A program made the position numbers and the translations under genes. From Escherichia phage vB_EcoS_MM-2, in sequence record PV577658: a stretch of 64,000 nucleotides of DNA. One strand, given 5' to 3'. Under the pieces are notes generated by a model, which did no database searches, was not told the DNA's origin, and was given only the letters and a program-made list of their open reading frames with translations. How positions within the stretch are numbered: position 1 is the stretch's first letter; every line of letters begins with the position of its first letter. This document shows, in pieces, positions 7,591-59,300 of this stretch.

Positions 7591-7650
7591 TTGCATAGTG
7601 CAAAAAATTTCTGTATAATAGATTCATAAATTTGAGAGAGGAGTTTAAAT
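7591..7650 (+). promoter_or_regulatory. strong early promoter of the T5 PN25 type
   Basis: aaaatttatttgcat(-35)..17 bp..tataat(-10) then agattcataaatttgagagaggagttt; matches my recollection of the PN25 promoter used in expression vectors. Confidence 0.65.
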
Positions 7651-11136: not shown

Positions 11137-11187
11137 TACATAGCCCTTTGCTACCCATCTACCATATCGGAATTATAAAGTGGTTAT

Positions 11188-11215
11188 TGACATTTTCGCC
11201 GCTTAGGTATATACT
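11188..11215 (+). promoter_or_regulatory. promoter-like element in the ligase inter-ORF spacer (TTGACA ... TATACT)
   Basis: ttgacattttcgccgcttaggtatatact. Confidence 0.4.
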
Positions 11216-11279: not shown

Positions 11280-11330
11280 TTGCTAAATGCTTAAATACTT
11301 GTTATAATATTTATATAAATTGATAAGGAA
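11280..11330 (+). promoter_or_regulatory. early promoter (TTGCTA-17-TATAAT) upstream of the ligase C-terminal subunit
   Basis: ttgcta..tataat then atttatataaattgataagg; same family as the 9833 promoter. Confidence 0.55.
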
Positions 11331-11335
11331 GAAAT

Positions 11336-12118
11336 TTGATGAAAATCGAAATTCCAACACAATGTCCCTCTTGTGGTTCTAAGCTAGATCTTGTCAACGG
11401 ACAATTATTTTGTCGGAATAAGTCCAACTGTCCAGCGCAATCAAGTAAGTTAATTGAGAACTTCTGTACAAAAATGAAGTTAAAGGGCTTTGGTCCAAAA
11501 ACTATTGAAAAGCTGGAGCTGACGAAGATCTCAGAACTATTTTACCTAACCGAAGAAGATTTGGTTAGAGCCGTGGGTAGCAAGGTTGCCGCTAAGTTAA
11601 TTAGCGAATTAAATACTAAAGTTCGCGGAGACATTGACTTTGGTTCAGTTCTCGGTTCTTTAGGAATCCCTCTAATTGGAGAGGTTGCAGCAAAGAAATT
11701 ATCCCAAAATTGCACTAGCTTCCACGATGTGAAGGCTGACGGCAAGGCTGGAGAAAACTACAAAGCCTGGCTAAATTCCCCGCAAGGCAAGGATGTTATC
11801 GAACTACCGTGGAAATTCTCAACTGGTATTAAGGGCACTAAAGCTGACGTCATCATTACAGATGAATTAGTTGCCCAGCCAAATGGAATCGCGGTATGTA
11901 TTACCGGATCTTTGCAAGATTTTGCAAATCGAACGGATGCAACAAACTATTTAGAAAGTCTAGGGTATACGGTTAAGAAATCCGTTACCAAAGACGTAAA
12001 ATACCTGATCTGTGAGGATGAATCAAAACGTTCTTCCTCATCTTATAAGAAAGCCGAAACGAATGGGATAGAAATCCTGTCGATTAAAGAACTATTGGAG
12101 AAAAATAATAATGTCTAA
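11336..12118 (+). CDS. ligB: NAD-dependent DNA ligase, C-terminal subunit (Zn finger, HhH, BRCT-like)
   Basis: CPSCGSKLDLVNGQLFCRNKSNCPAQ Cys4 zinc finger typical of LigA; likely ATG at ~11339. Confidence 0.7.
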   Translation: MMKIEIPTQCPSCGSKLDLVNGQLFCRNKSNCPAQSSKLIENFCTKMKLKGFGPKTIEKLELTKISELFYLTEEDLVRAVGSKVAAKLISELNTKVRGDIDFGSVLGSLGIPLIGEVAAKKLSQNCTSFHDVKADGKAGENYKAWLNSPQGKDVIELPWKFSTGIKGTKADVIITDELVAQPNGIAVCITGSLQDFANRTDATNYLESLGYTVKKSVTKDVKYLICEDESKRSSSSYKKAETNGIEILSIKELLEKNNNV

Positions 12119-16299: not shown

Positions 16300-18867
16300 T
16301 TGAAAATCGCAGTAGTTGATAAAGCTCTAAATAACACTCGTTACGATAAACATTTCCAGCTATATGGCGAGGAAGTTGATGTATTTCATATGTGTAACGA
16401 GAAGTTATCTGGTCGTTTGCTTAAAAAGCACATTACTATTGGAACACCAGAAAACCCATTTGATCCGAATGATTACGATTTTGTTATACTAGTAGGTGCT
16501 GAACCTTTCCTGTATTTCGCAGGTAAGAAAGGCATTGGTGACTATACTGGTAAACGTGTAGAGTATAATGGATATGCTAACTGGATTGCGAGTATCAGCC
16601 CAGCCCAGTTACACTTTAAACCTGAAATGAAACCAGTTTTCGATGCAACAGTAGAAAATATCCACGATATTATCAATGGTCGTGAGAAGGTTGCAAAAGC
16701 TGGTGATTACCGTCCTATTACTGACCCTGACGAGGCGGAAGAATATATCAAGATGGTGTATAATATGGTTATCGGACCTGTCGCATTCGACTCCGAAACC
16801 TCAGCACTATACTGTCGAGATGGTTATCTGCTTGGTGTTTCTATGTCTCACCAAGAGTATCAGGGTGTATATATCGATTCTGATTGTCTCACCGAGGTTG
16901 CAGTATATTATCTCCAGAAAATTCTGGATAGTGAAAACCACACTATTGTTTTTCACAACCTGAAGTTTGATATGCACTTTTATAAGTACCATCTGGGACT
17001 TACTTTTGATAAAGCGCATAAAGAACGCAGGCTCCATGATACTATGTTGCAGCATTATGTTCTAGATGAACGTCGTGGTACTCATGGCTTGAAATCTCTA
17101 GCAATGAAGTATACCGATATGGGTGACTATGACTTCGAACTAGATAAGTTCAAAGAGGATTACTGCAAAGCACATAAAATCAAGAAAGAAGATTTCACCT
17201 ATGATTTAATTCCGTTTGATATTATGTGGCCTTACGCTGCGAAAGATACCGATGCTACCATACGTTTGCACAACTTCTTCTTACCAAAAATTGAGAAGAA
17301 TGAAAAACTTTGTAGTCTGTATTATGATGTCCTAATGCCTGGTTGTGTATTTCTCCAGCGTGTTGAGGATCGTGGTGTACCTATTTCTATTGATCGTTTA
17401 AAAGAAGCTCAGTACCAGTTAACCCATAATCTGAATAAAGCTCGTGAAAAACTGTATACTTATCCAGAAGTCGTTCAGCTAGAGAAAGATCAGAACGAAG
17501 CGTTTAACCCAAACTCTGTTAAACAACTCCGTGTTCTTCTGTTTGATTATGTTGGCTTAACTCCAACAGGTAAATTGACGGATACTGGAGCAGATTCTAC
17601 AGATGCAGAAGCTCTGAACGAATTGTCTACGCAGCATCCAATTGCTAAGACTCTACTAGAGATTCGTAAGCTAACTAAGCTGATCTCTACTTATGTTGAG
17701 AAGATTCTTCTGAGTATTGATGCAGATGGTTGCATTCGTACTGGTTTCCACGAACATATGACTACTTCTGGTCGTCTGAGTTCTTCCGGTAAACTGAACT
17801 TGCAACAGTTACCTCGTGATGAATCTATTATCAAGGGTTGTGTAGTAGCTCCTCCTGGGTATCGTGTAATCGCATGGGACTTAACAACTGCGGAAGTTTA
17901 TTATGCTGCTGTTCTATCTGGTGATAGAAATATGCAACAAGTATTTATCAACATGAGAAATGAACCAGATAAATACCCCGACTTCCACTCTAACATCGCA
18001 CACATGGTATTTAAGCTCCAATGCGAGCCTCGTGATGTTAAAAAGTTATTCCCAGCTCTGCGTCAAGCAGCTAAAGCAATCACCTTTGGTATTCTGTATG
18101 GTTCTGGCCCAGCTAAAGTAGCTCATTCTGTTAACGAAGCTCTTCTGGAACAGGCTGCTAAGACAGGCGAACCGTTTGTAGAGTGTACGGTTGCAGATGC
18201 TAAAGAGTATATAGAAACTTACTTCGGTCAGTTCCCGCAGCTTAAGCGTTGGATTGATAAGTGCCATGATCAGATCAAGAATCATGGATTTATCTATAGT
18301 CACTTTGGTCGTAAACGTCGTCTGCATAATATCCACTCCGAAGACCGTGGTGTTCAAGGTGAAGAAATCCGTTCTGGATTTAACGCAATCATTCAGTCTG
18401 CTTCTTCTGATAGTCTCCTTTTAGGTGCTGTAGATGCAGATAATGAGATCATTTCTCTTGGCCTAGAACAAGAGATGAAGATTGTTATGCTGGTTCACGA
18501 CTCCGTAGTTGCTATTGTTCGTGAGGATTTGATCGACCAATACAATGAAATCCTAATTCGTAATATTCAGAAAGACCGCGGTATTAGTATTCCTGGCTGT
18601 CCGATTGGTATTGATTCAGATTCTGAAGCTGGAGGTTCTCGCGACTACTCTTGTGGTAAGATGAAGAAACAGCACCCATCAATCGCTTGTATTGATGATG
18701 ATGAATATACTCGTTATGTCAAGGGTGTATTACTTGATGCAGAATTCGAGTATAAGAAACTAGCTGCAATGGATAAAGAGCATCCAGATCATAGCAAATA
18801 CAAGGATGATAAGTTTATTGCTGTATGTAAAGATTTGGATAACGTGAGAAGGATTCTCGGTGCTTGA
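16300..18867 (+). CDS. family-A DNA polymerase with 3'-5' exonuclease domain
   Basis: 855 aa; exo motif FDSETS, motif A WDLTTAEVYY, motif B RQAAKAITFGILYG, motif C LVHDSV; TTG start after AGGAG. Confidence 0.9.
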   Translation: MKIAVVDKALNNTRYDKHFQLYGEEVDVFHMCNEKLSGRLLKKHITIGTPENPFDPNDYDFVILVGAEPFLYFAGKKGIGDYTGKRVEYNGYANWIASISPAQLHFKPEMKPVFDATVENIHDIINGREKVAKAGDYRPITDPDEAEEYIKMVYNMVIGPVAFDSETSALYCRDGYLLGVSMSHQEYQGVYIDSDCLTEVAVYYLQKILDSENHTIVFHNLKFDMHFYKYHLGLTFDKAHKERRLHDTMLQHYVLDERRGTHGLKSLAMKYTDMGDYDFELDKFKEDYCKAHKIKKEDFTYDLIPFDIMWPYAAKDTDATIRLHNFFLPKIEKNEKLCSLYYDVLMPGCVFLQRVEDRGVPISIDRLKEAQYQLTHNLNKAREKLYTYPEVVQLEKDQNEAFNPNSVKQLRVLLFDYVGLTPTGKLTDTGADSTDAEALNELSTQHPIAKTLLEIRKLTKLISTYVEKILLSIDADGCIRTGFHEHMTTSGRLSSSGKLNLQQLPRDESIIKGCVVAPPGYRVIAWDLTTAEVYYAAVLSGDRNMQQVFINMRNEPDKYPDFHSNIAHMVFKLQCEPRDVKKLFPALRQAAKAITFGILYGSGPAKVAHSVNEALLEQAAKTGEPFVECTVADAKEYIETYFGQFPQLKRWIDKCHDQIKNHGFIYSHFGRKRRLHNIHSEDRGVQGEEIRSGFNAIIQSASSDSLLLGAVDADNEIISLGLEQEMKIVMLVHDSVVAIVREDLIDQYNEILIRNIQKDRGISIPGCPIGIDSDSEAGGSRDYSCGKMKKQHPSIACIDDDEYTRYVKGVLLDAEFEYKKLAAMDKEHPDHSKYKDDKFIAVCKDLDNVRRILGA

Positions 18868-19357
18868 TTTCAAATTGCCCGTATATGCTTTACGGGCTTT
18901 TGTATCAATTGAGCAAGAAGGTGATTATTCCGTAATTACAACAAGATATAATAAATATGTACTAGATAACAGGAAGTTGCCTGGCACTTTTTCTCAACGT
19001 AGGCTTATTCTATTTGAGAAACGGAAAGAATTACCATATAAGCTCTATCCTATTAGGGGCAGAATATCCATGTTGTCTCAATTAGTTGGGTCAAAGCGTA
19101 GCCAATTTATAGATTCTGATGGAAATCTTATTAACTGGAAGAAAACTACGTTTTATGATGTTGTCACCTCTAAAGTTTTGCATTCAGCTAGAATTTACAA
19201 CGGAAAATACCAATGCTATGTAGCTAAAGTTCCATATCCATTTGTATTATCCTATGTTCCAGCTTATATAAGCTATATTCTGGTAAATAATAGCCCTGTT
19301 ATTTACCAAGTCCATCAAGAGGAGCCTGAAATTCCTAGACTTAGAATAAAATTATGA
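18860..19357 (+). CDS. hypothetical protein
   Basis: Track ORF overlapping polymerase stop and helicase start. Confidence 0.4.
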   Translation: MLDFKLPVYALRAFVSIEQEGDYSVITTRYNKYVLDNRKLPGTFSQRRLILFEKRKELPYKLYPIRGRISMLSQLVGSKRSQFIDSDGNLINWKKTTFYDVVTSKVLHSARIYNGKYQCYVAKVPYPFVLSYVPAYISYILVNNSPVIYQVHQEEPEIPRLRIKL

Positions 19358-20706
19358 AGGTTGTTATATCTAATAAAGCCTATTTCAAGCCCGATGATGA
19401 ACTTTGGGATTATTGTAGTAAACAAACCACTTATCACATTGAGACAATGACTAGTAAATACCCTATTATGTATAAGAATAGTGGTGTTGTTGCCAAAGAG
19501 ATTAAGTGGATTCCTATCACGCGTCTGGATTTACTAGATGCTAAAGGAGTAAAATACGAATTAGTCGATAAACGCACATTAGCTCCAGTAGATATACCAA
19601 GACCTAAGTTCAAGCTGCGTGAAGAAGACCAGCTCCCAATATATGAAGAGTGCGATGATACCTGTATTATTAATGGTAAGCCTGGATTTGGCAAAACTAT
19701 CCTAGCCCTGGCACTTGCGTATAAATTTGGCCAGAAAACTTTGGTAATTTGTACCAACACATCTATTCGTGAAATGTGGGCGGCAGAAGTTCGTAAATGG
19801 TTTGGGTTTGAACCAGGTATCATAGGTTCTGGAAAATACAATATTGATCCACCAATTGTGGTCAGTAATATTCAAACAGTGAATAAACATGCGAATAATC
19901 TTTCTAAAGTATTCGGTACTGTTATAGTTGATGAAGTTCACCATTGTGTGGCTACAACTTTCACTAACTTCCTAGAAATATCATGTGCTCGCTATAAGAT
20001 TGGGCTATCTGGAACATTAAAACGTAAAGATGGTCTACAAGTTATGTTCAAAGATTTCTTTGGATATAAGATCTTTAGCCCACCGGTTAATAATACTGTT
20101 GCACCTACAATCCATAGGTATTCCGTACCTGTTGAGTTATCAGGAAATCAGAATGTGCCATGGGCATTACGTGCTAACGATGTATACAACCATCCTGAGT
20201 ATCGAGAGACTATTATAAATCTAGCACATTTATACGTGAATATGGGACATAAAGTACTCATTGTAAGTGATAGAACAGAGCTAATCCAAACAGTACTAGA
20301 AGCTCTTACACAACGTGGTGTTACAACGTATGAAATTATAGGGGCAACCCACTTGGATGACCGATTAAAAATTCAGGAAGATATAGCAAAAGGTGGACCT
20401 TGTGTACTTGCAGCCGCTCAAAGTATCTTCTCTGAAGGTATTTCTCTTAATGAGTTGTCTTGTTTAATAATGGGAAGTCTTATTAATAATGAGTCTCTCA
20501 TTGAACAGCTTGCAGGTCGTGTTCAACGTATTGTTGATGGTAAACTCGACCCGATTGTTGTAGATCTAATTATGAAAGGTGGCACTGGGCTAAGGCAGGC
20601 TTCTGGACGTATGGCAGTATATCGTAACAACGGGTGGAAAACTATTACTATGACTCCAGAGAAAGCAGTTCAATTAGCTAAAATTGCATTTGGCAACAGC
20701 TCATAA
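19354..20706 (+). CDS. SF2 DEAH-box helicase (T5 D10-like branch-migration helicase)
   Basis: Walker A GKPGFGKT, DEAH box VIVDEVHHC, helicase C-terminal region with QLAGRVQR. Confidence 0.7.
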   Translation: MKVVISNKAYFKPDDELWDYCSKQTTYHIETMTSKYPIMYKNSGVVAKEIKWIPITRLDLLDAKGVKYELVDKRTLAPVDIPRPKFKLREEDQLPIYEECDDTCIINGKPGFGKTILALALAYKFGQKTLVICTNTSIREMWAAEVRKWFGFEPGIIGSGKYNIDPPIVVSNIQTVNKHANNLSKVFGTVIVDEVHHCVATTFTNFLEISCARYKIGLSGTLKRKDGLQVMFKDFFGYKIFSPPVNNTVAPTIHRYSVPVELSGNQNVPWALRANDVYNHPEYRETIINLAHLYVNMGHKVLIVSDRTELIQTVLEALTQRGVTTYEIIGATHLDDRLKIQEDIAKGGPCVLAAAQSIFSEGISLNELSCLIMGSLINNESLIEQLAGRVQRIVDGKLDPIVVDLIMKGGTGLRQASGRMAVYRNNGWKTITMTPEKAVQLAKIAFGNSS

Positions 20707-20720
20707 ATGATGTATAATAT
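20690..20720 (+). promoter_or_regulatory. early promoter (first of a tandem pair)
   Basis: ttggca..17 bp..tataat then atatacataaatttgagagag. Confidence 0.5.
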
Positions 20721-20789
20721 ATACATAAATTTGAGAGAGAAAGTTTCGGATTGATAAGAAAGTCCGAAGCAGAAAAATAAAAATTTTAG

Positions 20790-20825
20790 TTGCTAAATTC
20801 TCTCGAAATCTAGTATAATATATAC
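20790..20825 (+). promoter_or_regulatory. early promoter (second of the tandem pair)
   Basis: ttgcta..18 bp..tataat then atatacataaattcgaggag. Confidence 0.5.
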
Positions 20826-20926
20826 ATAAATTCGAGGAGAAAACAAAAATTAAATTCTTCGATTATGAAAAGCTATACTTACTAGCTAGAGGAAATTCCG
20901 ACCTAATTATTAAGTTATTCAAAAGA

Positions 20927-21211
20927 ATGCTTACAGAGCCTGATGCTCACCAATTGTTGGTCGGTTCCTCATTCATTTTGAATGAATCAACTATTGTTGA
21001 TAATCCAAATAAATTGTCTAATAGACAACTGGCAGAATATCTAGGAATTTTAAGTCTACGAAATTATGCCGAATACAAGTTTACAAACGATCCTAGTTTG
21101 GACATGCAATATGTTCCAGTATGGATACCACGTTTAGTAATCGACACTAACCCATTAATCGCAATTAACAAATCAAAATTAATCTTTAAAGAGGAAATAA
21201 AATATGGCTAA
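20927..21211 (+). CDS. hypothetical protein
   Basis: Track ORF. Confidence 0.35.
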   Translation: MLTEPDAHQLLVGSSFILNESTIVDNPNKLSNRQLAEYLGILSLRNYAEYKFTNDPSLDMQYVPVWIPRLVIDTNPLIAINKSKLIFKEEIKYG

Positions 21212-21977
21212 GTCTTGGGGCGAAACTACTGGCGGTTCTAACGATAAAATCGAATTCCTGAAGTTCAACAACGGTATCACTCGTGTTCGTATCGTTTCTG
21301 GTGTTCTTCCACGTTATGTCTATTGGCTGACTAATAAAGAGGGTAACGTAGCTCCTTTCGAATGTCTCCGTTTTAATCGTGACAAAGAGAGCTTCGTTCG
21401 CGGTAAAGCTGATCCGGTTCATGAGATGGGCTTCTTCGAGAAAGAGCTGGATAAAGATGGTAATCGTGTTCCGCTGAAACCGAAGAAAAACTATATCGCT
21501 TTTGTTATCGATCGCTCTGATAACAAACTGAAAGTAATGGAAGTCAAGGCTACTATTCTGAAAGGCATCCAGTCTATCATGAAGCAGTTGAGTCTGGCAA
21601 CTCCGTTTGATATTGATATTTCTATCGAGAAAAAAGGTAAAGGTTTCGATACTGAGTATGATGTACAGCAGATTGCTGCTATGCAGTTCCAGATTAAGCT
21701 GCAAGATCCTAACAGTGCAGAATCTAAGCAATATGCTGCAGATGTAGATCTGATCGGTGAAGCTATGTGTGATGAAGATGGCGACATCATTAAGTTCGAA
21801 AAAGTTCCTTCTCTGGAACAAACCTATCCGGTTCCTACCTATGAAGAGCAGAAAGAAGCAATTCTAGCCTTCATGGAGGGTCGTGAGAATAAAGATGATG
21901 ATGCCAAATCTGGTAATAGCAATGCAGGCTCCCAGAAAGGTATTGACACAGAAGCTGCAAGCGATCTGGACGACTAA
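21204..21977 (+). CDS. putative single-stranded DNA-binding protein, codon-biased
   Basis: Acidic C-terminal tail (DTEAASDLDD) typical of SSBs; OB fold not verifiable by eye. Confidence 0.35.
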   Translation: MAKSWGETTGGSNDKIEFLKFNNGITRVRIVSGVLPRYVYWLTNKEGNVAPFECLRFNRDKESFVRGKADPVHEMGFFEKELDKDGNRVPLKPKKNYIAFVIDRSDNKLKVMEVKATILKGIQSIMKQLSLATPFDIDISIEKKGKGFDTEYDVQQIAAMQFQIKLQDPNSAESKQYAADVDLIGEAMCDEDGDIIKFEKVPSLEQTYPVPTYEEQKEAILAFMEGRENKDDDAKSGNSNAGSQKGIDTEAASDLDD

Positions 21978-21984
21978 TAAATAG

Positions 21985-22008
21985 AGGGGCTTCGGCCCCT
22001 TTCTTTTT
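21985..22008 (+). terminator. rho-independent terminator
   Basis: aggggc-ttcg-gcccct hairpin followed by ttctttttaa. Confidence 0.65.
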
Positions 22009-22991: not shown

Positions 22992-24810
22992 GACACTAAA
23001 ATTTAGTAACGTTATGTCTTACGGTAAGGACATCGTAATTCATTTCGACAAGAATCCAGTTACTCAACTAATTGGTGGCAATGGGCTAGGGAAATCCACC
23101 ATCGCTACGGTTATCGAGGAATTGTTTTATAACAAGAACTCACGGGGTATTAAGAAGGATGCTCTGTTCTCTTGGTCTTCTCCGAAAAAAGAGTATGATA
23201 TGCACGCTTACTTCTCAAAAGATGAAGATGAGTATGAATTGCATAAAGTAGTTAAATCAACTGCTAAAGTAACCCTTATTAAGAATGGAGAAGATATTAG
23301 TGGACACACGGCGACCCAAACATACAAGATGATTGAAGAAATTATGGGTGGTGACTTCCAAACATTCACCAAACTTATTTATCAATCAGTGGGTTCTAAT
23401 CTAGACTTTCTAAAAGCAACAGATGCAACACGTAAGGCTTTTCTTGTCAACTTGTTCAATCAAGAACAGTACAAAGAAATGTCAGAAACTATTAAGGCTG
23501 ACCGTAAAGAAATAGCAAATACCTTAAATAATTTGCAGGGCCAAATGGCTGTAATTACGAAAATTCTTAATGGAAAGAATAACTTGGGAACTTTGCAGGA
23601 ACCTGTAGAAGTACCGGAGTTTGATGAAGAGCCGTTAGCACAAGAACTTACTGAATCGAAAATTAAGGCGGCATTAGCCAAGTCTCAAGAGGCTAATATT
23701 ACTAAATTGCGTAATTTGGACAAAGCTGTACAAGTTGCCGAACAATCTTTCGAGCCTTTCAAAAATTTACCCGCGCCCACTGACCAAAATGAAGAGATCT
23801 CGAGTGTTACGCGTGACCTAACGATTGTGACCTCACGTGCGAGCGAAGTTAAGAAACGTTATCAGAAGTTCAAGCAAGAGGCTTCAAATACTGAATGTCC
23901 TACCTGTGGTACTCATCTGGATACAACTGCTGCGCAAAAAGCAATGGATATGGCTAGAACAGAATATGATCCTCTGTTCAAAGAGAAGCAATCTCTTGAA
24001 GCTAAGCTAGAACAGTTGAAGAAGGAACAACTTGAGTACGTTGCGTATACTAGAGCAAAGGATGCTTTGGATAAGGCAGTGGTAGCTAGAGACGAGTTCA
24101 AAAATTCAATGAGTGATGCTTCTTTTGAAGAACTCAATGTGCAAATCCTACAGGTGCAAATCCGACAATTAGAACAGGAAATAGCTGATGGACGTTCTAA
24201 GGTTGCAATTGCTAAAGAACATAATGCAAATATTGAGTTAGCCAATGCAAAATATAAGGCGAAACTAGAACAGATTGAGAAAGCTGAGGCAGAAATGTCT
24301 GAGATTACATCCAAACTGGATGGAGTATCAGAAGCTGTTGCTGATCTCGATATTCTGATTGCTGCATTAAAGAATCTAGTAGGATATAAGCTAGAGCATA
24401 GTGTGAAAGTATTTGAAGAACTTATCAATAAATACCTTTCTATTATGACTGGCGGTAAGTTCGCACTTGGATTTGAACTTGATGAAACGAAATTGCAAGT
24501 AGTAATCTTCAATGATGGAAACCGTACCAGTATGGAGAATTGCTCTACTGGTCAGCAAAGTCGAATCAACCTAGCAACTCTGTTAGCTATTCGAATGCTA
24601 CTAACATCTATTAGTAAAGTTAATATTAATCTTCTATTCCTTGATGAAGTAATTAGCTTTATTGATACTAAAGGACTTGACACCCTTGTTGAATTATTAA
24701 ATGAGGAAGAAAGTCTAAATTCTATCATTGTTTCTCATGGGCATACGCATCCATTAGCCCATAAGATTACTGTCAAAAAAGATGCAGAAGGATTTTCCTA
24801 CTTAGAATAA
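22897..24810 (+). CDS. SbcC/Rad50-family ATPase (likely start at Met ~22972)
   Basis: Walker A GGNGLGKST, long coiled coil with CPTCG zinc-hook, signature STGQQSRINLA, Walker B LLFLDEV. Confidence 0.75.
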   Translation: MNFTSVKLRSYLKVTLIESWLELRNMSKITIKTLKFSNVMSYGKDIVIHFDKNPVTQLIGGNGLGKSTIATVIEELFYNKNSRGIKKDALFSWSSPKKEYDMHAYFSKDEDEYELHKVVKSTAKVTLIKNGEDISGHTATQTYKMIEEIMGGDFQTFTKLIYQSVGSNLDFLKATDATRKAFLVNLFNQEQYKEMSETIKADRKEIANTLNNLQGQMAVITKILNGKNNLGTLQEPVEVPEFDEEPLAQELTESKIKAALAKSQEANITKLRNLDKAVQVAEQSFEPFKNLPAPTDQNEEISSVTRDLTIVTSRASEVKKRYQKFKQEASNTECPTCGTHLDTTAAQKAMDMARTEYDPLFKEKQSLEAKLEQLKKEQLEYVAYTRAKDALDKAVVARDEFKNSMSDASFEELNVQILQVQIRQLEQEIADGRSKVAIAKEHNANIELANAKYKAKLEQIEKAEAEMSEITSKLDGVSEAVADLDILIAALKNLVGYKLEHSVKVFEELINKYLSIMTGGKFALGFELDETKLQVVIFNDGNRTSMENCSTGQQSRINLATLLAIRMLLTSISKVNINLLFLDEVISFIDTKGLDTLVELLNEEESLNSIIVSHGHTHPLAHKITVKKDAEGFSYLE

Positions 24811-59099: not shown

Positions 59100-59273
59100 C
59101 TACTTATTTTATGAAATAAATTAATTGACTTTTATTTGTTAGTATGCATCGGAAAGATAGCAGACTAATAATTGCTAGAATGATAATCATGCTGGTGGAT
59201 TGTAACGACCTGAATTATTAGCAGACTATTAATCACGGAAAAATCTCATTAGCCAACTAACTATTTCATGATA

Positions 59274-59300
59274 TATAATATACATATAAATTAATGAGAA
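59274..59300 (+). promoter_or_regulatory. promoter-like element of the early family
   Basis: tataat followed by atacatataaattaatgagaaa box; no convincing -35; no gene for ~430 bp downstream. Confidence 0.35.

Follow-up and report, generated by a model that had tools for sequence, protein, structure and literature searches.

Tandem early promoters P31A and P31B, with a conserved stem-loop between them, ahead of the single-strand DNA-binding protein operon of T5-like phages

Why should two complete early-type promoters lie about 100 bp apart on the same strand, separated by a stem-loop, in front of one short phage operon? The question is raised by a 64,000-nt stretch of Escherichia phage vB_EcoS_MM-2 (PV577658), the whole of which is referred to here as the window and which is 100% identical to phage MM-1, a T5-like Tequintavirus. 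The elements concerned follow one another in this order:

19354..20706, plus strand: D10 helicase gene (list of open reading frames; annotations of PV577657.1 and T5)
20690..20725, plus strand: promoter 1, T5 P31A (consensus scan, 19-mer scan, T5 annotation)
20725..20742, plus strand: initial transcribed sequence of promoter 1, ATAAATTTGAGAGAGAAA (cassette comparison)
20743-20770, plus strand: stem-loop, arms GUUUCGGAUU / AGUCCGAAGC (folding, inverted-repeat scan)
20771..20789, plus strand: A-rich tract AGAAAAATAAAAATTTTAG, at −55 to −37 of promoter 2
20790..20826, plus strand: promoter 2, T5 P31B (consensus scan, 19-mer scan, T5 annotation)

A sequence-only reading had described a pair of full early-type promoters, 100 bp from each other, with a stem-loop between them, and both observations are confirmed. 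Promoter 1 comprises the −35 element TTGGCA (20690-20695), a 17-bp spacer, the −10 element TATAAT (20713-20718) and the discriminator ATATAC, and would start transcription at the A at 20725; promoter 2 comprises TTGCTA (20790-20795), an 18-bp spacer, TATAAT (20814-20819) and the same discriminator, with a predicted start at the A at 20826. Matching the consensus at 11/12 and 10/12 positions, respectively, they are the top two matches in 19500-22000, both on the plus strand, and form a 31-nt direct repeat (87% identical) with a spacing of 101 bp; the loose consensus scan overall found 9 sites against 7.5 expected, which is not above chance. The 19-mer TATAATATATACATAAATT, covering the −10 element, the discriminator and the first transcribed bases, occurs exactly twice in the window, at 20713 and 20814. 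With up to three mismatches allowed, it occurs seven times, always on the plus strand (0.25 expected; none of 100 shuffles reaches seven), and these seven occurrences include the homologues of T5 P-N25 and P-K28a.

T5 promoters of the N25 type are textbook strong promoters. Both promoters of the pair are near-consensus sigma-70 promoters and have the N25-type arrangement of −35, spacer and −10 (TTGACA-like, 16-18 bp, TATAAT) and the N25-type downstream block, consisting of a 6-nt A/T-rich discriminator, the start A of ATAAATT and a purine-rich run, so that the shared cassette reads TTGNNA, a spacer of 17-18 bp, TATAAT, the discriminator and the start sequence ATAAATTYGAG. The first 15 nt of ATAAATTTGAGAGAGAAA also begin the transcript of the N25-type promoter at 7614 in the window, and the element shows no substitution relative to phage Eps7. 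The −35 element of promoter 1 falls within the last 17 nt of D10, whose stop codon (20704-20706) lies in the promoter 1 spacer. Upstream of the −35, promoter 2 has a full UP-like block, the tract AGAAAAATAAAAATTTTAG, which is nearly identical in T5, Eps7 and the Klebsiella phages, is present in a single copy in the window and would serve promoter 2 as a UP element; the block of promoter 1 is partial (AAAATT, −41 to −36, within coding sequence). Inspection of the locus by eye gave no convincing match to IHF-like or Fis-like sites.

The tandem pair is the T5 early promoters P31A and P31B. The T5 reference genome (RefSeq NC_005859) annotates ‘promoter P31A’ at 75467-75541 and ‘promoter P31B’ at 75568-75642 on sequence identical to the window, and the core finding was thus already known; the sequence-only reading had missed this identity, and also the coding start 23 nt past the second transcription start. 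Each T5 feature is 75 nt long and corresponds to −55 to +20 around the starts proposed here, and T5 and the window do not differ in the DNA of the two promoters, the hairpin or the leader, which lie at the same place between D10 and T5.125/D11. The T5 record differs in leaving the hairpin unannotated and in beginning T5.125 at an internal ATG. As a discovery, the promoter pair is therefore modest, since it is already in the T5 reference annotation. The literature search returned no mention of P31A or P31B, no genome-wide map of T5 transcription starts and no experimental 5′-end data for the locus; because of the latter, we infer the activity of both promoters during infection from their sequence. 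In the study of Klimuk et al. (2020), only 11 of 19 in-vitro T5 promoters were detected in vivo, and ATATT is given as the discriminator consensus of T5 early promoters, here ATATA (PMC7472727). A paper on DRT4 was also considered and had no relevance to the locus.

Located within the pol-D10 transcription unit, the promoters open an operon of two genes, for a 120-aa protein and the D11 single-strand DNA-binding protein (SSB), which comprises the following:

20834..20839, plus strand: Shine-Dalgarno sequence GAGGAG, 9 nt upstream of the ATT (read from the sequence)
20849..21211, plus strand: 120-aa open reading frame with proposed ATT start, homologue of T5.125, PHROG 4258 (annotated as 94 aa from the ATG at 20927)
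21204..21977, plus strand: D11 single-strand DNA-binding protein gene (PHROG 1607, E = 1.3e-105; annotations)
about 21984-22008, plus strand: intrinsic terminator GGGGC-TTCG-GCCCC followed by TTTCTTTTT, ending the operon (sequence)

The first of these genes almost certainly begins at the ATT at 20849 and not at the annotated ATG at 20927. Other genera carry ATG, GTG or TTG at the position of this ATT, the 120-aa form aligns from residue 1 among the matches listed, down to 45% identity, and at least 80% of its length is covered in 904 of 906 records. Residues 1-120 match positions 1-120 of the PHROG 4258 profile, the N-terminal part includes the invariant residues L12, G15 and L19, and the ATT is found in all 24 Tequintavirus loci, where four of the five variable codons among codons 1-26 are synonymous. 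GAGGAG is placed as in the other promoter cassettes. AUU start codons are rare in E. coli-type systems; the gene appears to be mis-annotated in T5 and many of its relatives and to have a conserved AUU start, which makes the start of the T5.125 homologue worth correcting in the reference annotation. With the reading frame beginning at 20849, the intergenic gap shrinks to 142 nt: the 220-bp intergenic region of the sequence-only reading agrees with the annotation (20707-20926), but 20849-20930 would be coding. D11 overlaps the stop of the 120-aa frame and has its own Shine-Dalgarno sequence, AAGAGGAAA, and the T5 annotation places a rho-independent terminator at the site homologous to 21984-22008. 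A possible fold of the short P31B leader that would mask its ribosome-binding site was considered and rejected, being weak (−6.1 kcal/mol) and unconserved.

Our preferred reading, to which we assign a probability of about 0.7, is that P31A and P31B in tandem start a strongly transcribed operon of the 120-aa frame and SSB, the number of promoters setting the dosage and no short RNA being made. Both promoters would start the operon, and their transcripts would end at the terminator, which lies some 1.2 kb farther on. The proximal promoter (20826) would produce an mRNA with a 23-nt leader, the GAGGAG ribosome-binding site and the AUU start codon, and the distal promoter (20725) an identical mRNA with a leader 101 nt longer, as transcripts from promoter 1 should read through promoter 2 into the operon. 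Promoters about 100 bp apart could be occupied simultaneously, raising transcription of SSB, a protein probably needed in large amounts, well beyond that of the polymerase and helicase genes upstream. The hairpin would structure the A/U-rich P31A leader and the read-through RNA from upstream and, with low confidence, would probably stabilise them. Transcription that starts at promoter 1 and passes through promoter 2 could also occlude the latter, in which case the output may be less than additive.

Comparison across the Demerecviridae bears on this dosage model. Of the 12 lineages examined, 10 have a promoter at the position of promoter 2, among them T5, Eps7, Novosibvirus, the Klebsiella phages, PR1 and the Vibrio phages; the exceptions are the My1-like L044, with only a promoter-1-like site, and L062, with none. 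Two promoters precede the same reading frame in Tequintavirus, Epseptimavirus, Novosibvirus and four metagenomic lineages, and three do so in the Klebsiella phages, with start-to-start spacings of 101, 101, 96/95, 100 (+92), 100, 98, 105 and 81 bp. The pair of L060 is a 66-nt repeat of 94% identity and that of L061 a 69-nt repeat of 75%, which is why we take them as independent duplications. Recurrence and duplication together argue for selection on promoter dosage. What is new here is that tandem promoters about 100 bp apart before the SSB operon recur in the Demerecviridae, repeatedly by duplication, and would provide a natural example of gene-dosage tuning through promoter number.

The stem-loop between the promoters has a 10-bp stem (three G-C/C-G, five A-U and two G-U pairs) and an 8-nt loop; counted from the start of promoter 1 it spans +19 to +46, and from that of promoter 2 −83 to −56. 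It thus begins farther from the 5′ end than classical 5′-terminal stabilising stem-loops. For a 66-nt RNA that includes it, the folding energy is −14.2 kcal/mol (z = −5.1; none of 200 shuffles equals it), the inverted repeat TTCGGA-N(3-20)-TCCGAA is present in a single copy in the 64-kb window against 0.05 expected, and no second copy of the hairpin and A-tract module was found in the window. Between MM-1 and Eps7, positions 20723-20785 contain no substitution and a single 1-nt insertion in Eps7, compared with a divergence of about 11% in the flanks and 30% in the promoter 2 core, a result whose chance probability is estimated at about 5e-4; for the stem-loop itself, the count is 0/28. The Klebsiella phages keep both stem arms around a loop of 3 nt. 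Among natural single variants in the stem, two retain pairing via G-U and three disrupt a pair. In the covariation test, which compared nearly identical sequences, 0/10 pairs changed on both sides and three on one side, with 90.8% of cells paired, the same as in the shuffles; MAFFT puts the 5′ arm of the Klebsiella sequences in the wrong place in the hairpin alignment. An outer helix in the P31A leader, formed in MM-1 by UUUGAGAGAG and, within the promoter 2 spacer, CUCUCGAAA, is lost in Eps7, whose spacer has changed, and is therefore taken as fortuitous.

Folding also predicts inter-promoter structure in Novosibvirus (z = −5.1 and −5.4) and in L054 (z = −3.9), formed by non-homologous hairpins, and finds none in L049, L060, L061, Vibrio phage 294E48 and the first Klebsiella interval. 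Because structure is absent from several lineages that have tandem promoters, the hairpin is not required for the tandem arrangement. We interpret it as a stem-loop in the leader of the P31A transcript, with a putative role there, and the second new element of this locus is that the first 63 nt of that transcript, hairpin included, are substitution-free between two genera and make up a candidate leader element.

The hairpin is not a terminator. The bases directly 3′ of the stem are CAGAAAAAUAAAAA, no U-tract comes after it (CAGAAAAAUAAAAAUUUU follows, and U residues first form a run 16 nt farther on), and the terminator scan reported nothing at 20743-20790, so that neither an intrinsic terminator nor an attenuator of that type is found. 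The terminator of the unit at 21984-22008 illustrates the genuine form at this locus. A minus-strand terminator was likewise dismissed by eye, as the U-rich run would precede the hairpin and not follow it. The missing U-tract also weighs against regarding the hairpin as a structure that protects or processes the 3′ end of the pol-D10 mRNA and has nothing to do with the flanking promoters. Such a role would suit its position 37 nt past the D10 stop codon and the habit of T5, in which a hairpin often separates the end of one gene from the promoter that follows (at 24513, 27219 and 55694, an annotated terminator overlaps a promoter), and between the pol promoter and the hairpin the only other terminator is a terminator-like site at 18877. 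We nevertheless hold it to be unlikely, since in phages where an endonuclease gene has been inserted the hairpin accompanies the promoter pair and not the end of the helicase gene, and in the Klebsiella phages it is separated from the helicase stop codon by more than 150 nt, with the second promoter on one side of it and the third on the other.

A further reading accepts both promoters and holds that the two mRNAs of the SSB operon are functionally different, a short-leader form from P31B and a long-leader form from P31A carrying a cis-regulatory hairpin and A/U-rich tract. We judge this improbable. If it were true, the P31A leader could be an RNase E stability element or an operator for cooperative SSB autorepression like that of T4 gp32, and the clade-fixed AUU start would further tune the translation of the first cistron.

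It is equally doubtful that the proximal promoter alone matters, with promoter 1 either an inactive remnant of a cassette duplication or a sequence that matches by chance within the end of the helicase gene. In favour of this view, part of promoter 1 is coding sequence and its upstream A-tract is incomplete, in PR1 and in the Vibrio phages PVo5, Bennett and pVp-1 a lone promoter stands immediately before the reading frame, and the detection in vivo of only 11 of 19 in-vitro T5 promoters (PMC7472727) would leave room for a silent one. Promoter 1 is, however, the better consensus match of the two, with the optimal 17-bp spacer, and its start region is identical to an N25-type cassette over 15 nt. 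Its transcribed region has no substitution between genera, against 30% in the promoter 2 core, and it remains intact where a homing endonuclease gene has replaced the 3′ end of the helicase gene; in the My1-like L044, moreover, the sole promoter is promoter-1-like.

The sequence-only reading had also proposed that the first promoter, with no open reading frame behind it before the second, could make a short RNA or act as an attenuator or polymerase sink. No reading frame indeed lies between the promoters: the sole candidate, a micro-ORF of 9 codons (MIRKSEAEK) from the TTG at 20751, is present in T5 and Eps7, and the Klebsiella relatives lack the TTG and have the shared bases in another frame, for which reason it was rejected. 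A short non-coding RNA ending near the hairpin, or an attenuator or sink limiting the transcription that reaches promoter 2, would account for a stable hairpin at +19 after a strong promoter, for a substitution-free leader, and for the purine-rich, Shine-Dalgarno-like run of promoter 1 being followed by no conserved start codon, in contrast to the other cassettes, which have one at +22 to +26. Of the features expected of a small non-coding RNA gene, the promoter is present, and the terminator and the RNA-family match are absent: an Rfam scan of 20000-21500 with permissive thresholds gave a best E-value of 0.37, all matches being far below gathering scores, and ARAGORN found no tRNA or tmRNA. 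A discrete short RNA from promoter 1, or an attenuator, is unlikely because the hairpin has no U-tract and there is neither a terminator call nor a significant Rfam match. The sink, for its part, has gained no support and is hard to square with tandem promoters recurring in many lineages, including by recent duplication of the whole cassette, which suits dosage better. The hairpin is missing, too, from several lineages with tandem promoters. Taken together, we consider this set of proposals very unlikely.

The least probable reading, that the inverted repeat is a double-stranded DNA operator by which a dimeric phage or host regulator acts on one or both promoters in the early-to-late switch, can draw on the perfect match of the 6-bp arms, on their conservation with no compensatory change, as for a protein site, and on the position of the centre, −69.5 for promoter 2 and +32 for promoter 1, which would suit a class I activator of the former or a roadblock for the latter, but the fixed half-site spacing and several copies usual for palindromic operators are not seen here: the arms are 12 nt apart in T5 and Eps7 and 3 nt apart in the Klebsiella phages, a difference tolerable for a hairpin and not for a dimeric site, the single copy in the window leaves no regulon visible, and the hairpins that other lineages have in this interval are unrelated.

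The dosage model can be set beside several known systems. The T4 gene 32 leader offers an analogy only, in that it likewise belongs to a phage SSB message and combines a 5′ folded element with a long, A/U-rich, unstructured stretch leading to the ribosome-binding site; the T4 element is a pseudoknot with experimentally shown autoregulation, whereas here a simple hairpin is predicted and the first cistron is not SSB. The P1-P2 promoters of E. coli rRNA operons are strong same-strand sigma-70 promoters about 100-120 bp apart with UP elements, whose product is made in very large amounts, and they are controlled by Fis, ppGpp and DksA. The layout of P31A/P31B is similar, with no sequence relationship and no sign of Fis, ppGpp or DksA control.

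Closer relatives are found within T5 itself. P-N25, the ‘T5 promoter’ of expression vectors, is annotated in T5 upstream of D2, has its homologue at 7614 in the window, and shares the cassette, with TATAAT, a 6-nt discriminator and then ATAAATTTGAGAGAG. Its discriminator is AGATTC instead of the ATATAC of P31A and P31B, and it stands as a single promoter directly before its gene, whereas promoter 1 precedes a hairpin and a second promoter. The N25 transcribed sequence is said to have been studied for efficient promoter escape, by Kammerer et al. in 1986 and by L. Hsu. As for paired promoters, P-K28b/P-K28a (homologue in the window at 11187/11280) differs from P31A/P31B in that its upstream member has the −10 element TATACT and a different start region, and its interval is weakly structured (z = −2.5) with no comparable hairpin. 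It nonetheless parallels the present locus as an annotated same-strand early pair, 93 bp apart, placed before ligB-D5, and D5 is an abundant DNA-binding protein.

The promoter pair ahead of the SSB gene is already known: it is the P31A/P31B pair of T5, a close relative of Escherichia phage vB_EcoS_MM-1 (MM-1; PV577657.1; Demerecviridae, genus Tequintavirus), to which positions 20300-21300 are 100% identical. The T5 record (NC_005859) carries at the homologous place the regulatory features 'promoter P31A' (75467-75541) and 'promoter P31B' (75568-75642), whose 75 nt correspond to -55 to +20 around starts equivalent to window positions 20725 and 20826, in each case the A of ATAAATT, 7 nt past TATAAT. 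T5 and MM-1 share the same sequence throughout the two promoters, the hairpin and the leader. A passage of PMC10644984 refers to 2005 work; experimental mapping of P31A/P31B was not found in the accessible literature, and a passage of Klimuk et al. (2020, PMC7472727) reports 11 of 19 in-vitro T5 promoters as detected in vivo. What is added here is a comparative picture of promoter duplication recurring ahead of the SSB operon, together with a leader hairpin that is invariant and a probable misannotation involving a conserved AUU start codon. The features concerned are the following:

19354-20706, D10 helicase gene, upstream of the promoter pair
20690-20725, + strand, promoter 1 (P31A)
20723-20785, invariant block: promoter 1 start region, hairpin and most of the A-tract
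20743-20770, stem-loop between the promoters
20790-20826, + strand, promoter 2 (P31B)
20849-20927, N-terminal extension with ATT start (T5 NC_005859 75646-75724)
20927-21211, hypothetical ORF, annotated 94 aa, downstream of the promoter pair
21204-21977, D11 single-strand DNA-binding protein (SSB) gene, downstream of the promoter pair
about 21984-22008, after D11, intrinsic terminator of textbook form, GGGGC-TTCG-GCCCC then TTTCTTTTT, in agreement with the T5 annotation

Because the nearest strong promoter upstream is the pol promoter (about 16210) and a terminator follows D11, P31A and P31B are internal promoters from which a 1.2-kb operon, comprising a 120-aa ORF and SSB, begins. Farther upstream, a terminator-like hairpin (18877-18897, +; GCCCGTATATGCTTTACGGGC then TTTTGT) lies 10 nt past the DNA polymerase stop codon, within the beginning of the next ORF (18860-19357), and may partially terminate transcription between pol and helicase.

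A loose consensus scan is overall at chance level (9 sites versus 7.5 expected), and its top two sites over 2.5 kb, both on the coding strand, are promoter 1 (TTGGCA-17-TATAAT, 20690-20718, 11/12) and promoter 2 (TTGCTA-18-TATAAT, 20790-20819, 10/12). The 19-mer TATAATATATACATAAATT is above chance: it matches exactly at 20713 and 20814, and when up to three mismatches are allowed it has seven matches in the 64 kb, each of them on the + strand, versus 0.25 expected; the promoter copies form a 31-nt direct repeat with 101-bp spacing. Together with the folding z score of the stem-loop, these results bear out the anatomy proposed by the sequence-only reading, two promoters with a stem-loop between them, in all but the size of the intergenic region, put there at 220 bp: the ORF begins at 20849, so the non-coding gap is 142 nt (20707-20848) and 20849-20930 is coding.

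This start, for which AUU, conserved in the T5 clade, is the simplest initiation codon, is likely on comparative grounds. The annotated frame is open back to 20819, and the position of 20849 is occupied by ATG in Eps7 (an Epseptimavirus), GreteKellenberger, PM135, RP7, the Klebsiella phages, PR1 and the Vibrio phages, and by GTG or TTG in a few further lineages; it is ATT in 24/24 Tequintavirus loci and ATG in 6/6 Epseptimavirus loci. The 120-aa version aligns from residue 1 among the matches listed, with identities as low as 45%, and of 906 phage records 904 span 80% or more of its length. Residues L12, G15 and L19 do not vary, and the 120-position profile PHROG 4258 is matched at positions 1-120 by residues 1-120. 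Within the ATT clade, codons 1-26 include five variable codons, four of them synonymous, with no stops or frameshifts. Because open-frame, start-codon, alignment, profile and synonymous-change evidence coincide, the extension is probably translated in the T5 clade, and the 94-aa annotation from an internal ATG is likely an error, the protein being 120 aa long (PHROG 4258). In one lineage (L062, IMGVR_UViG_2974604416, about 695-740) the homologous ORF is interrupted at codon 13 by an in-frame stop (MLFYSYEKLYLL*RG); a pseudogene and a sequencing error are both possible explanations.

Of 12 lineages examined, 10 have a promoter immediately upstream of the ORF, the exceptions being the My1-like L044, whose sole promoter-1-like site directly adjoins the start codon, and L062, with no promoter-like site upstream. 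A second promoter lies 81-105 bp farther upstream in Tequintavirus, Epseptimavirus, Novosibvirus (PM135, RP7) and four metagenomic lineages (L049/L050, L054, L060, L061); it is present in weaker form in Vibrio phage 294E48, and the Klebsiella phages have three promoters in tandem. The pairs of L060 (66-nt repeat, 94% identity) and L061 (69-nt repeat, 75% identity) are separate duplications. In PR1 and the Vibrio phages PVo5, Bennett and pVp-1, which carry an extra ORF after the helicase, one promoter precedes the ORF. This recurrent, independent appearance of tandem promoters, considered with the stoichiometric need for SSB, points to selection for high transcription of the SSB operon.

In the Klebsiella phages (L006, vB_Kpn_K7_rec13, 1428-1656; also L042, L043) the promoters are spaced by 92 and 100 bp, the leader of the middle promoter carries CAGCAACTGA, the reverse complement of this promoter's own -35 region, and the -10 of the last promoter stops 4 nt short of the ORF's ATG with no Shine-Dalgarno sequence, an arrangement that suggests a leaderless mRNA from the last promoter. 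In T5 a further annotated tandem pair, P-K28b/P-K28a, stands ahead of ligB-D5 with a spacing of 93 bp; its homologue in the window (11187-11215 and 11280-11308, +, 93 bp apart) precedes an ORF beginning at about 11336-11340, and the interval is weakly structured (z = -2.5).

In the comparison of MM-1 with Eps7, divergence is about 9-12% in the flanking genes and 30% in the promoter 2 core; the invariant block shows no substitutions and one 1-nt insertion in Eps7; by our own calculation, the chance of zero substitutions is about 0.887^63 = 5e-4. In phages where a homing endonuclease gene has taken the place of the helicase 3' end, the former 3' end is kept on the downstream side of that gene and supplies the -35 region of an intact promoter 1. 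The endonuclease gene sits at the helicase gene end in GreteKellenberger (L004, 940-1510) and two further loci (L035, L040), whose helicases have an altered C-terminus (…AQEVFKA). Microsatellite-like length variation occurs within promoter elements of two phages (L018, about 655-675; L030, about 580-600), one whose promoter 2 discriminator is expanded by 4 nt of AT (TATAATATATATATAC) and another in which the GAGAGAG run at the promoter 1 start is longer by one GA.

The stem-loop itself, GUUUCGGAUU-GAUAAGAA-AGUCCGAAGC, folds within a 66-nt RNA at -14.2 kcal/mol (z = -5.1), and its inverted repeat is single-copy in the window versus 0.05 expected. With low confidence, we read it as a leader stem-loop that would structure or stabilise the long A/U-rich P31A leader, which includes all of promoter 2 as RNA. 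It might instead protect the 3' end of the upstream message. The inverted repeat could also be a DNA-level site; the Klebsiella phages conserve both arms around a loop of 3 nt in place of 8-12 nt, which speaks for a single-stranded hairpin rather than a dimeric-protein operator. The stem shows no compensatory covariation, and among singleton variants two still pair via G-U and three break a pair. The hairpin is not a terminator: its 3' flank is CAGAAAAAUAAAAAUUUU, and the scan gave no terminator-like site at this place. The locus has no Rfam family, tRNA or tmRNA match, and the proposal that promoter 1 makes a short RNA, or acts as an attenuator or polymerase sink, is unsupported. In other lineages the interval between the two promoters holds unrelated structures of equal significance, in Novosibvirus a hairpin, about 16-18 bp long, that overlaps the promoter 2 -35 (z = -5.1 and -5.4) and in L054 a structure with z = -3.9; folding gave no inter-promoter structure in L049, L060, L061, 294E48 or the first Klebsiella interval.

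The seven 19-mer matches align as one cassette type: an A/T-rich upstream block, TTGNNA, spacer, TATAAT, 6-nt discriminator, ATAAATT and a ribosome-binding site rich in purines, with the start codon falling between +22 and +26. Promoter 2 fits it fully, with GAGGAG at 20834-20839 and ATT at +24 in place of the ATG or GTG of the other cassettes; promoter 1 is a cassette that lacks a gene, the hairpin coming after a degenerate purine run. Another such 'orphan', an N25-type cassette at 59250-59292 (+; TAGCCA-18-TATAAT then ATAAATTAATGAGAA), lacks a start codon in the +22 to +26 interval where one normally lies. Among known T5 promoters, P-N25 and P-K28a have their homologues in the matches at 7614 and 11303, respectively, and the first 15 transcribed bases of promoter 1 are the same as those of the window's N25 homologue.
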